From Candidatus Parcubacteria bacterium (GTDB lineage: Bacteria; Patescibacteriota; Minisyncoccia; SURF-38), in contig QZJN01000003.1 of the NCBI GenBank assembly GCA_003599335.1, forward strand, positions 4,654-68,653: a stretch of DNA of 64,000 nucleotides, given 5' to 3'. The stretch's first letter is position 1, and every line of letters begins with the position of its first letter. Below the pieces are notes generated by a model that ran no database searches, had not been told where the DNA came from, and saw nothing but the letters and a program-made list of their open reading frames with translations. Positions 37,234 through 46,454 of the stretch are shown piece after piece. Made by a program: the position numbers and the translations under genes.

Positions 37234-37292
37234 AAATTGGCCTACCAGTCTAGGTGGGCTGTGCATAGTAATCAAAAAATCAGTATTTTAGG

Positions 37293-37330
37293 TTGCAAAA
37301 AGCTGTCTTTAAAAAGAGGCAGCTTTTTGC
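37293..37330. terminator. Hairpin terminator (GCAAAAAGCTG..CAGCTTTTTGC) downstream of leuS
   Basis: 11-bp perfect stem with a U-rich 3' arm. Confidence 0.45.
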
Positions 37331-37384
37331 AACAGGGCTATAATTGAGCCTAAAGGAGTCAACTTTTGTTGGCGGAGGCGCCCG

Positions 37385-38362
37385 ATGAAAGCAAAGCTCT
37401 TGATGTTCCCGGTTGTTCTTTTCACTTTCAACCTTCTTCTCAATTCGGCCTTGGCCCAACAAAATTCTGTCAGGGTCATAAATCTCAACAAGGAAGACAT
37501 GGCGGAGTTTGAGCGCGTTACTTTTGAAATAAGAAAATATGCTCAAACTTTTCGTTCGCGAGTTGTTTCGGCGGACAAAATCGACAAACACCTTAAAGAA
37601 CTGAAACACCAATTCAAACAGGAAAGAAAATCCGGAAAAAATCCAGCCAGGATTGAAGAGTTAAGCGCAGAAATTGAAAGATTCTCAAGGTACCGTCGAG
37701 CTGTTCCGTTGCTTTCGCAAATCCTCAGGCTTGTTCCTCAAGCCAAGTTCAAACTCCAACATTGCGCTTTTTACGAAAGCCTGGCAGAGCTTCCGGTTCC
37801 GATTCCTTACTCCCAAGGTCTTCAATCGACGCCGATGTTTGTATTTTATCCTTACGAGGATTTTGTCCCAGTTTGGATAAACTTTCACGGCGAAGATTTT
37901 CAGAAGGCTTTAGAGATTCACCAAGCCGAAAATGAAAGGCAGGCGATGGTTGTGCCGGAGCCTTTTCTTAGGGAAGCCATGCAAAAAGGCTTCAACGGTC
38001 TTGTCAGGGTCGGCAGTTACCTTCCTTCGGGAAGTTACACGATTCATCCCCGCCAAGAAAGGAAGCCAAACCCACTGTTTTACTTCGTCGCTTCGATGAT
38101 TTGGCACGAGAGGGCTCACCTTGTTTGGAATGACATGACGGGACGTTTCCCGGTCGGAGAAAAAGAATGCAACGAGTCTCAACTTTTTGCTTTCAACAGC
38201 CAACTTGAGCTTCTGGAGCAGTTTCACCGTCGGGGTAAAATCAACCTCCACTTTTACCGGGTTTTTTCCCAGACGGTCAAGGTCGAGATCGCCGGTTTAA
38301 CCGACAAGCAAGAAATCCTAAAGAAGGAGGCTTTGAGTGTGAGTTCTTCCAACAACGATTAG
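37385..38362 (+). CDS. Secreted HExxH-motif protein (putative minimal zincin-like metallopeptidase), paralog A
   Basis: Signal peptide MKAKLLMFPVVLFTFNLLLNSALA and an HExxH motif (MIWHERAHLVW). Conserved blocks are shared with 38466..39212: C-FY, WINF, and SQLFAFNSQLELLEQF versus SEIFAYEVELEALERF. TATAAT and GGAGG lie upstream. Confidence 0.45.
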   Translation: MKAKLLMFPVVLFTFNLLLNSALAQQNSVRVINLNKEDMAEFERVTFEIRKYAQTFRSRVVSADKIDKHLKELKHQFKQERKSGKNPARIEELSAEIERFSRYRRAVPLLSQILRLVPQAKFKLQHCAFYESLAELPVPIPYSQGLQSTPMFVFYPYEDFVPVWINFHGEDFQKALEIHQAENERQAMVVPEPFLREAMQKGFNGLVRVGSYLPSGSYTIHPRQERKPNPLFYFVASMIWHERAHLVWNDMTGRFPVGEKECNESQLFAFNSQLELLEQFHRRGKINLHFYRVFSQTVKVEIAGLTDKQEILKKEALSVSSSNND

Positions 38363-38465
38363 CGGCCGCTGATTGCCTTCAGGCATCGGCGGCCGTTCCG
38401 TTTTTAGCGGTTGCATTATTATCTTTCGGGAGTAATATGGCGATATCTCAATTTGGAGGTGAGAT

Positions 38466-46000: not shown

Positions 46001-46345
46001 TATCCTTTTTCTGATTTTTCTTGGTCTCCTGTAAATCCGGGGGCAGATGTTGTTGTTCAATTTACCGACCAGAGCGTATGTTATGATCAAAATAATAATA
46101 CAATCGCTTGCACGAGCTGGTTGTGGAATTTTGGAGATGGTTTTACTTCGCCAGATCAAAACCCAAGGCATATTTATTCCGCCTCAAGCAGTCCTCCCAG
46201 CAATCCTTTGCCTCCGGCGAATTATAATGTGAGTTTGACATCCACAGGCGGTTCGCCAACCTCATTTAGTTGCCAGGCGACAAAGACGATAAATGTCGGC
46301 ACCTATGTGCCTTTGCCAAGCTGGCGAGAAGTCGCACCGCTGTAA
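43001..46345 (+). CDS. Giant secreted multi-domain surface protein, 1114 aa (CARDB/BACON-like beta domains, IPT/TIG, FN3-like and C-terminal PKD domain)
   Basis: Signal peptide. IPT/TIG block (PAPSITSLNPS..GGFTLTVNGNNF). FN3-like WYRVRVQDSVGQWSGWSN. PKD signature WLWNFGDGFTSPDQNPRHIY..NYNVSLT. Higher GC than the core genome. Confidence 0.6.
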   Translation: MFSEARNTNSLIFLSFLVGVFLFAGSQAYAATSATSVPDIATSLESYGGRVYSQTTNSSTISGYFDYSPSTDSRNIPNPPPNSVLVEVGYGSDEHDYHMEVQFGKFVADPVTGAWTVQYTTSQIRSAGGERNGYWVKLEPKDFTGNVVQNAYLTRWRWNSSGTSGGRPGDDSSPGGVCAHAMYQRYDPTTFQLIGSKIEGGNCSKRGYQLNSSWIRGFVTAPPGEFIVSIKNFIFGDDAKMRGGIADWRKLVNSTLNARYVSDNLPTNLSVNTPYSGTMTIRNSGNIVWESDNIISKSGDCSTFDQTAPDPNTECHEYYTVASTDFKLKRLDSSPITITSPMEYRRVVDRKYQWVLIPFACDPPPPPDPCDSNPSDPLCDIYQIYFNSERRFTQKDGLFSIPKAHAQSCDEWSVQVSDTPIFNVTNVAPNDQVDFPISFTTTASAGTYNLQFRMVRSTTNTEFGDIITVPVTVTAPTGTITVNSVNQQTLNAAPSDWTITGPSTFTDSGLGQKTYTTAIGDGQYTFSPVPGSGGPLYTLDSVKAISGNYAKIKREGFSFGFLKDWVGSLARAFDTSGSSCGSNSCWLASGNSVTFQVAWIPEATLDLSPASLNLTGTIYTPNPTGIVSVQNNGAPGSTLNWSISGASQGWLSGSPASGNGVAAGSSQNSTITASISGLSAGTYNGNTVTFAGTSQPGNTAVMSGPKSLTVNLTVNNPAPSITSLNPSNAIAGSGGFTLTVNGNNFVNGSVVRWNGSNRTTTFVNQNQLTAIINAADIASPGTFPVTVFNAAPGGGTSNSVNLTVSQVTADIDANGSDGPITIPYNSAATITWASSNATSCSVAPTGWTGTSGSQSTGNLTSGQTYTLTCTNGSVNVQDIVTVNVQPNSQPSPGTATHTSPGSQPGGWCSNDNNWIINWTFSDTDGDTQNTYQIQIDNSGNTFPSPEIDQTPPPVNTSNSYTAQGLTYNATTYWYRVRVQDSVGQWSGWSNVGSFTTNNNAYPFSDFSWSPVNPGADVVVQFTDQSVCYDQNNNTIACTSWLWNFGDGFTSPDQNPRHIYSASSSPPSNPLPPANYNVSLTSTGGSPTSFSCQATKTINVGTYVPLPSWREVAPL

Positions 46346-46385
46346 GATTGTATTTTGTAGTTAGTATCTGGTATTTAGTATCTAA

Positions 46386-46429
46386 AATCAAAATCCTCCG
46401 TAAAGACGGAGGATTTTGATTTTTTAATA
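46386..46429 (+). terminator. Strong rho-independent terminator (18-bp stem AAAATCAAAATCCTCCGT..ACGGAGGATTTTGATTTT followed by TT)
   Basis: Perfect long inverted repeat after the giant gene. Confidence 0.7.
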
Positions 46430-46454
46430 GGTTGATTGCTATACTTATCAAGCG

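Follow-up and report, generated by a model that had tools for sequence, protein, structure and literature searches.

The DNA lying between leuS and glyA in a Candidatus Parcubacteria bacterium (positions 37250-46430 of the 64,000-nt stretch analysed here, hereafter the window) raises the question of whether this block is a horizontally acquired cell-surface or host-attachment locus, as a first-pass annotation had proposed, or an older part of the genome with a more composite history. Seven genes, designated A, B, C, D, MT, F and G, are encoded in it, all on the plus strand, as had been claimed; every feature of the block given below is located on that strand. An N-terminal hydrophobic segment was found only in A, B, C, F and G, so that five of the seven products are predicted from sequence to be exported. 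The statement that every product is exported must therefore be withdrawn, as D and MT are devoid of such a segment and cytoplasmic, the MT gene having been overlooked initially.

The announced increase in GC content was recovered when GC was computed along the window (from ~0.39 to 0.48-0.54 over 38-42 kb), with a step up at ~37350 and a step down at ~41850. Codon usage, however, delimits a smaller region. Indeed, by reference to 46 background genes of the window (GC3 0.355 +/- 0.032), A (0.506), B (0.486), C (0.621) and D (0.595) are GC3 outliers (z = +4.1 to +8.4), whereas MT (0.307), F (0.318) and G (0.368) are native-like, MT and F being low-GC genes. Likewise, the RSCU distance of A-D pooled is 2.82 to a ~50% GC lineage and 4.25 to the window's own genes, which places their codon usage nearer to that of ~50-60% GC genomes, while MT plus F, G and leuS all lie at 2.1-2.4 from the window background. 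Atypical codon usage, expected by the first-pass annotation for the whole block, is thus restricted to 37.35-41.85 kb. The overall GC content of G (0.448) is explained by a GC-rich second codon position (0.531), that is, by an effect of amino-acid composition. Other GC3-rich orphan genes were observed at 13920-14522 and 49989-50822 of the window, together with a 228-aa gene on contig L092 of the relative described below; no homology was found among these three.

The block is bordered upstream by a hairpin located 3' of leuS (37292-37333; 17-nt arms, 94% complementary) and closed 5' of glyA by a terminator hairpin with perfect 18-nt arms (46384-46423). Three internal hairpins were identified, in line with the reported scarcity of internal terminators and the strong closing one: a terminator-like hairpin between A and B (38389-38414), a strong terminator hairpin 3' of C (41176-41210; 16 pairs plus a T-run) and another strong one 3' of D (41805-41835). 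The best sigma-70-like promoter match of the block (TTGACA-18-TATATT, 11/12, a consensus match only) lies 5' of C at 39262-39291. The ORF starts listed at 41137 and 41785 were rejected, as both ORFs would cross strong terminator hairpins; the true starts lie after these hairpins, at 41311 for D, which is also the start in the NCBI annotation (156 aa), and probably at 41872 for MT. No Pfam match to an integrase or transposase was found in the block, direct or inverted repeats flanking it gave chance-level matches only, and no tRNA is present at its borders, the nearest being a tRNA-Leu (49748-49831) 3.3 kb beyond.

The genomic context was compared with that of an independently assembled relative sharing ~65-70% amino-acid identity (leuS 73%, glyA 71%, relA 67%), which was pieced together from the independent Logan contigs L092, L088 and L087, overlapping at 99.97-100% nucleotide identity. 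The gene order in this relative is metG-tatD-leuS-[A/B homolog]-C'-C-MT-F-G-glyA-folD-PAP2-ParB-relA-topA. The relative also shares the GC3 step, with values of 0.46 for the A/B homolog (P0056), 0.50 for C' and 0.53 for C versus 0.31-0.36. It differs from the window in the absence of D and in copy numbers, with one HExxH gene and two C-like lipoproteins. The first-pass annotation had named conservation of the block in all relatives, in an identical context, as the finding that would speak against a single acquired unit, and the block does occupy the same leuS-glyA site in this one close relative. This points to a leuS-glyA interval that is long-resident and not a recent insertion, on the basis of a single relative. 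Among the GTDB species representatives searched with leuS, the best identity was 55% and the downstream synteny differs; in contigs L013 and L023, metG-tatD-leuS is kept and is followed by glmS and other genes, so that this comparison has no bearing on the block itself. Where raw GC draws a 9-kb island, GC3 and synteny together draw an old locus of which one half, 4.5 kb long, is atypical, and this is a methodological lesson in itself.

The first two genes of the block, A (37385-38362; 325 aa, motif HERAH) and B (38466-39212; 248 aa, motif HEGGH, AF2 pLDDT 79), code for secreted proteins. A has a signal peptide ending in ALA|Q and a GGAGG sequence 6 nt 5' of its ATG. That they are secreted HExxH paralogs, as had been noticed, is borne out by BLASTP (E=3e-14), the two HExxH motifs being aligned. 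In K-mer-seeded and exhaustive HMMER searches, this family has three known members, namely A, B and P0056, and no homolog was found beyond the two sister lineages; a fourth candidate, P0055, was rejected as a spurious repeat protein. The residues H165, E166 and H169 of the HExxH motif are invariant in the three proteins, as are P180, E183, E185, S189, F192 and A193, with E183 and E185, candidates for the third metal ligand (a Glu in gluzincins), located where the helix that follows HExxH begins. No match to a curated peptidase family was obtained against Pfam, NCBIfam, PHROG, PADLOC or PDB sequences, PDB sequence-profile searches returned nothing useful, an exact-sequence look-up of A gave no match, and the family was not found on IMG/VR viral contigs. 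A and B would constitute an orphan zincin-like family and could act as extracellular metallopeptidases. The nearest known kinds are zincin/gluzincin metallopeptidases (M32, lethal factor, Wss1/SprT and minigluzincins) and HExxH oxygenase domains (PDB 8s5f).

Gene C (39362-41131) encodes a 589-aa predicted lipoprotein with a signal peptide and a lipobox (LGGC, in the context ALIVLGG|CGG). A Pro-rich linker leads to two I-set Ig domains, after which come one IPT-like Ig domain and a beta-propeller of the YncE/YVTN type with seven blades, an architecture that agrees with the earlier description of C as a lipoprotein with tandem Ig domains. In 12 of the 14 C family members, namely those with a complete N-terminus, a hydrophobic N-terminal segment precedes an equivalent cysteine, which mostly stands in a CGG motif. 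Within C, an Ig-domain coding unit of 215 nt is duplicated in tandem (39519-39988; copies 90% identical). An exact-sequence look-up of C gave no match. The Ig modules match the phage Ig-like families PHROG 3995, 4069 and 2973 (E=5e-50 to 4e-32) and in this resemble the I-set/Hoc-like domains displayed on phage virions, with the difference that C is a cellular lipoprotein; a search of the IMG/VR viral contigs recovered no member of the C family. This class of phage Ig domains is known for promiscuous shuffling, which fits both the 5' mosaic described below and the internal duplication. YncE (PDB 3vgz) and an archaeal S-layer YVTN propeller-PKD protein (PDB 1l0q) share only 12-16% sequence identity with C, which in addition possesses a lipid anchor, I-set Ig modules and an IPT domain.

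The history of C was examined through the identity of fourfold-degenerate sites between the window and the relative, counted in codons whose amino acid is conserved, with eight pooled housekeeping genes as the baseline (0.327, n=816). This identity reaches 0.467 over the whole of C (binomial p=3e-5), with 0.30-0.40 in the 5' segments and 0.58 in the 3' third (p=1e-6), the latter being 80% identical at the nucleotide level to the C gene of the relative. Furthermore, residues 28-262 of the relative's C share 95% nucleotide identity over ~700 nt, and a fourfold-site identity of 0.90, with a copy present in a 68%-GC bacterium (contigs L095 and L096). The neighbours of this copy are aroB-like and nadB-like genes, an HTH-TM protein and a sigma-54 activator (GC 0.67-0.70, GC3 0.80-0.89), and it was recovered in two runs of the same series as the relative. 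In a rough NJ tree without support values, the L095 copy nests in a CPR-type clade. C homologs with native composition were also detected in contigs of 59-65% GC (L101-L105). At the level of sequence comparison, C is demonstrably a mosaic gene that has been exchanged horizontally between lineages, and the combination of intragenic mosaicism with a near-identical segment in a very differently composed bacterium provides, at that same level, direct evidence of recent cross-lineage exchange. For A, B and D, composition suggests transfer.

Gene D (41311-41781) codes for a 156-aa cytoplasmic protein assigned to PF27765 (UCP032817-like) by a precomputed Pfam call that its entry (P0002) shares with all 44 of its matches. 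The protein carries the motifs D-x2-WH and FIHH-x-P and a C-terminal cysteine motif, C-x2-STNCQ. In its family D65, W68, H69, Y78, C82, H92, P94 and W127 are invariant, and C138, S141, T142, N143 and C144 nearly so. Its description as a Cys-tailed DUF1399-like protein was right for the cysteine tail and wrong for DUF1399, as D has no match to the GRDP-like model PF07173 even at E<=1. Weak matches to that model occur in two of 43 family members (best E=0.022), so that the D-x2-WH...Y...C...HH-x-P signature retains a weak GRDP-like echo while D itself fails the Pfam model. A PDB sequence-profile search with D returned nothing useful. In the relative, D is absent and tblastx revealed no significant match to a gene remnant in the C-to-MT spacer. 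In several unrelated genomes D is richer in GC3 than its neighbours (L006, 0.705 versus 0.386; L098; L097), and it is not GC-enriched in L001 and L003.

Gene MT (41872-42438) encodes a 188-aa cytoplasmic class-I SAM methyltransferase with a TehB-like domain (Pfam TehB, 33.7 bits for a cut-off of 20.4). A role as TehB tellurite-resistance equivalog was rejected, since the NCBIfam TehB equivalog models gave 32-42 bits for cut-offs of 218-303, and so was a role in defence, the sole PADLOC match being a generic methyltransferase-domain match to mad2; these scores describe MT as a small class-I SAM methyltransferase of generic type. Orthology with the methyltransferase of the relative was considered, but the two proteins are only 23% identical (E=5e-5), which implies that the slot is conserved and that the gene has been replaced or evolves extremely fast. 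D adjoins a small TehB-like class-I methyltransferase in five of six independent contexts, these methyltransferases sharing a mutual identity of only ~25% and scoring far under the TehB equivalog cut-offs. D and MT make up an independent module, also present in other genomes.

Gene F (42554-42997) codes for a 147-aa protein composed of an N-terminal TM anchor, which is consistent with the small membrane-anchored protein announced in the first-pass annotation, and of a ~110-aa domain; its homologs have a weak precomputed PF27226 (AF_1845) call. The product of gene G (43001-46345) is a secreted multi-Ig/PKD protein of 1114 aa; it comprises a choice-of-anchor Z repeat, a signal peptide ending in AYA|A and a C-terminal motif, LPSWREVAPL, conserved as LPxW[KR]EVxPL. 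CoaZ_rpt_PGGG (118.5 bits, cut-off 30), Ig_Rha78A_N (32.8, cut-off 27.4) and N_BRCA1_IG (29.3, cut-off 28) were detected in G. The secreted, multi-Ig character initially ascribed to it is confirmed; of the other domains listed then, CARDB and FN3 were not detected and PKD_4 stays below threshold (22.4 bits, cut-off 27). C, F and G co-occur in five contexts, namely the window, the relative (L087), L090, L099 and L100, in all of which F lies directly 5' of G with an F-G gap of -4 to +16 nt. L090 and L100 belong to the ~50% GC lineage.

Taken together, these data are best explained by an old, fast-evolving envelope gene neighbourhood of this Parcubacterium rather than by a freshly inserted island, a reading to which we assign a probability of about 0.6. 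Its core would be a three-gene surface module, in which C would be lipid-anchored and carry a seven-bladed beta-propeller head on an Ig-domain stalk, F would be small, anchored in the membrane and coupled to G in translation, and G would form a very long secreted Ig/PKD fibre ending in the conserved LPxW[KR]EVxPL motif. The region 5' of this trio would encode one or two zincin-like HExxH proteins that are secreted, and D and MT would represent a separate cytoplasmic pair wedged into the locus. A-D would have become GC-rich by repeated recombination with higher-GC lineages, and would stay so because alleles or segments are replaced by copies from these lineages, as found for C and as may be the case for A, B and D. 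The trio could mediate contact or adhesion at the surface of the symbiont, and the propeller head and Ig modules, as recognition parts, would be the very parts being shuffled. Of the initial idea of an acquired surface or host-attachment locus, the mostly surface-exposed or secreted products, the foreign codon usage of the 5' half and the exchange of C are retained, and the single 9.2-kb unit is abandoned.

Insertion of the whole 37.25-46.43 kb interval between leuS and glyA as one acquired island appears very unlikely. It would account for the raised GC over much of the interval, for the predominance of surface proteins and for the terminators at both ends, and Patescibacteria commonly carry genomic islands (PMC12455944), but it is at odds with the shared leuS-glyA gene order of the relative, with the native GC3 and RSCU of MT, F and G, with the lack of integrase, flanking repeat and bordering tRNA, and with the occurrence of D plus MT elsewhere as an independent module. 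A purely vertical history, in which selection (on mRNA structure, on expression level or on codon preference) would keep GC3 intrinsically high in A-D, is improbable too. The orthologous region of the relative is GC3-raised although synonymous sites elsewhere are saturated, D exceeds its neighbours in GC3 in three other contigs, and homologs of A and B that could be donors were not found elsewhere. A gene-wide codon preference, however, does not account for a fourfold-site identity that varies from 0.30 to 0.58 between segments of C, nor does this scenario agree with the ~95% identical C segment in a 68%-GC genome, the native GC3 of the secreted F and G, or the D genes of L001 and L003, which are not GC-enriched. 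An assembly or binning chimera would be compatible with the metagenome-assembled origin of the genome and with the abruptness of the composition steps; it is nevertheless hardly credible, as native flanks adjoin the segment contiguously on either side within the window, the succession leuS-HExxH-C'-C-MT with the same step is present in independent assemblies from other runs, and the D-MT pair, of a type seen in other genomes, spans the downstream GC boundary.

Alternatively, C, F and G could form an accessory module of type IV pili instead of an autonomous set of envelope adhesins, with C as a counterpart of PilY1 or PilX2, namely a propeller adhesin associated with the pilus; we regard this proposal as conceivable but not likely. 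In its favour, the trio lies directly 3' of a type IV pilus operon (PilM, PilB, PilT, PilC, pilin, PilD and pseudopilin), on the same strand, in two of the five contexts (L090 and L100), and pilus-mediated host binding by Nanosynbacter lyticus TM7x, a member of the Saccharibacteria, requires PilX2, a minor pilin that bears a propeller (PMC12206443). C resembles PilX2 and the PilY1 proteins of Pseudomonas and Myxococcus in its seven-bladed beta-propeller on an extracellular stalk, in its proposed role in host contact and in the adjoining pilus operon of these two related loci. It differs from them in being a lipoprotein, neither a pilin nor of the PilY1 type: C does not combine a pilin-like N-terminus or a PilY1 domain with a place in a minor-pilin operon, comparison with PilY1 gave no sequence match and no top-ranking fold match, and the window itself displays no pilus linkage.

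A bolder extension of the envelope-neighbourhood reading, which we consider doubtful, is that C, with F and G, would be the host-recognition device of an episymbiont whose recognition modules are swapped with the bacteria that it physically touches, the ~95% identical 700-nt segment shared by L087 and L095 then marking a real symbiont-host pair. If so, metagenomes alone could suffice to link uncultured Parcubacteria to their hosts, through shared alleles of the C family. To our knowledge, neither the hosts nor the attachment mechanisms of most Parcubacteria have been described. The recurrent C-F-G module and the orphan secreted HExxH family are candidate contact factors, and the exchange of C suggests a way of tracing partners.

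Genomic islands and individually transferred genes have both been described in Patescibacteria (Gios et al. 2025, mSystems; PMC12455944). The present locus is similar to these islands in being an atypical stretch of a streamlined CPR genome, with other Patescibacteria and distant bacteria as exchange partners. It differs in that it is syntenic in a relative, atypical only in its 5' half and devoid of mobility genes, and in that the signal is the intragenic mosaicism of a surface lipoprotein instead of the insertion of a cassette.

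Seven genes, all on the + strand, are encoded between leuS and glyA, not six as counted in the first-pass annotation, which missed a methyltransferase. These are (i) A (37385-38362; 325 aa) and B (38466-39212; 248 aa), two secreted, zincin-like HExxH paralogs, (ii) C (39362-41131; 589 aa), an Ig/propeller lipoprotein, (iii) D (41311-41781; 156 aa), (iv) the class-I methyltransferase MT (41872-42438; 188 aa), (v) the membrane-anchored protein F (42554-42997; 147 aa) and (vi) the giant Ig/PKD protein G (43001-46345; 1114 aa). The interval is bordered by metG-tatD-leuS (32530-37233) upstream and glyA-folD-PAP2 (46455-49624) downstream, and A-D bear the locus tags C4553_00575 to C4553_00590 in the NCBI metagenome-assembled genome of a Candidatus Parcubacteria bacterium (contig of 120,063 bp). 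Hairpins are found 3' of leuS (37292-37333), of A (38389-38414) and of G (46384-46423; perfect 18-nt arms). Mechanical ORFs opening at 41137 and 41785 cross strong terminator hairpins of 16 pairs (41176-41210) and 13 pairs (41805-41835), respectively; the annotation places the start of D at exactly 41311.

The GC rise initially reported for the block was confirmed at 38-42 kb (raw GC 0.48-0.54); raw GC is 0.354 at 42-43 kb and 0.42-0.46 across G. Relative to the third-codon-position GC (GC3) of 46 background genes of the window (0.355 +/- 0.032), A (0.506; z=+4.8), B (0.486; z=+4.1), C (0.621; z=+8.4) and D (0.595; z=+7.6) are outliers, whereas MT (0.307; z=-1.5), F (0.318; z=-1.2) and G (0.368; z=+0.4) are native, with GC3 steps at about 37350 and about 41850. 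G is GC-rich at codon position 2 alone (0.531), an effect of its abundant Ser, Thr, Gly, Pro and Ala residues. Codon usage agrees: pooled A-D lie at an RSCU distance of 2.82 from the genes of a lineage with roughly 50% GC, versus 4.25 from the window's own genes, and the distances of MT+F, G and the leuS control to the window background are 2.1-2.4. The atypical segment therefore spans about 4.5 kb instead of 9.2 kb, and it is the 37.35-41.85 kb half that is compositionally foreign.

Export, initially ascribed to every product, does not extend to D and MT, whose hydropathy profiles show no hydrophobic N-terminus (15-residue maxima of 0.97 and 0.50, versus 2.2-3.3 in A, B, C, F and G). The signal peptides of A and B are of the classical type, with ALA↓Q and GLA↓Q at the cleavage site; C has a lipobox (LGG↓C), F is anchored by an N-terminal TM segment, and the signal peptide of G closes with AYA↓A. 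A and B are predicted extracellular metallopeptidases, although fold matches of B are weak, and form a new orphan family with P0056, their homolog in a relative. G contains N_BRCA1_IG, a choice-of-anchor Z repeat (118 bits) and Ig_Rha78A_N, with PKD_4 below threshold.

D does not fit the DUF1399/GRDP-like model by which it was first named; it is a member of PF27765 (UCP032817-like), in which D, W, H, Y, C, H, P and W are invariant, and has a C-terminal C-x2-STNCQ. Of six independent contexts, five (the window, L001/2, L003-5, L006 and L098) have a small TehB-like methyltransferase next to D, and the sixth (L097) has a GNAT acetyltransferase in its place. These methyltransferases are only about 25% identical among themselves, and D-MT is an independent pair. 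Genes of the D family exceed their neighbours in GC3 in several unrelated genomes (L006 1839-2306, 0.705 versus 0.386; L098 4001-4630; L097 4001-4483), and a nitroreductase gene lies nearby in two contexts; the family is possibly mobile itself, or subject to an unusual codon constraint.

GTDB representatives were too distant for a comparison of block synteny (leuS identity of 55% or less). A much closer relative, reached via homologs of C and A/B, comes from an independent assembly of a series of SRA runs and consists of three contigs (L092, L088 and L087) whose overlaps are 99.97-100% identical in nucleotides. Its gene order is metG, a 228-aa gene, tatD, leuS, P0056, C' (a second C-like lipoprotein gene; 604 aa), C (522 aa), MT, a 51-aa ORF, F, G (715 aa), glyA, folD, PAP2, ParB, relA and topA. 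The GC3 step recurs, with 0.46 in P0056, 0.50 in C' and 0.53 in C versus 0.31-0.36 in its MT, F, G and housekeeping genes. Given this shared order and step, the block is old at the leuS-glyA site, and its conservation in context is the observation that was named in advance as refuting a horizontally acquired locus, to the extent that one relative allows. Amino-acid identities within the block (A/B 29%, MT 23%, F 43%, G 51%) are far below those of the flanks (leuS 73%, glyA 71%, ParB 71%, relA 67%, metG 62%, tatD 62%), and the first 445 residues of G are found in the window alone; C is 69% identical, but mosaic. Judged against this one close relative, the interval is an old, syntenic, fast-evolving envelope locus.

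Both genomes place an MT gene between C/D and F (L087 2723-3268), but the enzymes share just 23% identity (E=5e-5), against 43-71% for neighbouring genes, which reflects either non-orthologous replacement or extreme divergence. In the position of D, the C-MT spacer (L087 2352-2722) holds a roughly 40-codon ORF tail (...YLTEENLSVAMVGPIDEKDVVVPKL*), which may be a gene remnant, and two terminator-like hairpins; tblastx gave no significant match for this spacer. The extracellular domain of F is present in two tandem copies in the relative (L087 3635-4429; 264 aa) and in one in the window.

Simple vertical inheritance of the GC-rich genes since the split would be expected to saturate their synonymous sites to the same degree as in housekeeping genes. 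Fourfold-degenerate site identity, counted in codons whose amino acid is conserved, is 0.327 for eight pooled housekeeping genes between window and relative (n=816; about 0.26 expected from composition) and 0.467 for C (n=199; p=3e-5), with 0.30-0.40 in its 5' segments (window residues 120-395) and 0.58 in its 3' third (n=84; p=1e-6; 80% nucleotide identity). Residues 28-262 of the relative's C reach 0.90 (95% nucleotide identity) with a copy on L095/L096, a contig seen in two runs; outside this segment the two are just 48-65% identical. This copy, which has a signal peptide of its own and is frameshifted at its 3' end, forms a 47-56% GC trough amid genes at 67-70% GC (GC3 0.80-0.89), its neighbours being aroB-like and nadB-like genes, an HTH-TM protein and a sigma-54 activator. 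A metagenome scan yielded further C homologs (29-37% identity) of native composition in 59-65% GC contigs, and a 412-kb contig of about 50% GC carried another. The L095 copy clusters with window and relative, outside the native high-GC clade, in a rough NJ tree computed without support values. Alleles and segments of C therefore pass from lineage to lineage, probably between phyla, and C is a recombinational mosaic across lineages. For A, B and D, composition suggests transfer. Continuing allele replacement, as opposed to a single ancient event, would keep A-D GC-rich.

Single high-GC orphan genes are scattered through both window and relative. A 200-aa orphan (13920-14522, +) shows the highest GC3 deviation in the window (0.70; z=+10.9), with no Pfam or PHROG match and no homology to the other GC-rich orphans. 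A 277-aa multi-TM orphan (49989-50822, - strand; GC3 0.597, z=+7.6), with no Pfam or PHROG match, lies just beyond tRNA-Leu(CAA) (49748-49831) and looks like a classic tRNA-adjacent insertion; it is missing from the relative, where the PAP2-ParB gap is just 258 nt. The 228-aa gene between metG and tatD in the relative (L092 5318-6004) has a GC3 of 0.71, and metG and tatD overlap in the window. A second variable region, AT-rich, is a low-GC trio (29886-32522, +; GC 0.29-0.33, GC3 0.26-0.29) of genes for a GT2 glycosyltransferase, a nucleotidyltransferase and an NHL-like protein; the relative lacks this trio and has an rsmI-like gene abutting metG. The local GC bump at 16490-16786 is due to the tmRNA gene (- strand; tag peptide ANKNLALAYA).

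The window, L087, L090, L099 and L100 all carry C, F and G together, a recurrent, undescribed trio whose F-G gap is -4 to +16 nt in each of these five contexts. The trio lies directly 3' of a type IV pilus operon (PilM, PilB, PilT, PilC, pilin, PilD and pseudopilins) in L090 and L100, and its GC3 is 0.50-0.56 throughout in L099, where the flanks are at 0.31-0.37. G ends in LPxW[KR]EVxPL-COOH in the window (46316-46345), L087 (6544-6573) and L099 (about 4490-4522); the motif, which may serve in sorting or anchoring, is absent from the G-like protein of L090. In a scan of ten sources (the window and nine loci, L099 G not among them), it occurred solely at the C-termini of G from the window and of G from L087. 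C, F and G would form a surface contact apparatus, in which the Ig and propeller parts would act as recognition modules.

Genomic islands and gene-level horizontal transfer have been described in Patescibacteria, chiefly within the group but with distant phyla as well, and amount to up to 13% of genome length (PMC12455944). In Saccharibacteria, the propeller-bearing minor pilin PilX2 is required for pilus-mediated host binding (PMC12206443). C, a lipoprotein, falls outside the definition of PilY1 or of a pilin, but is similar in logic to PilX2.
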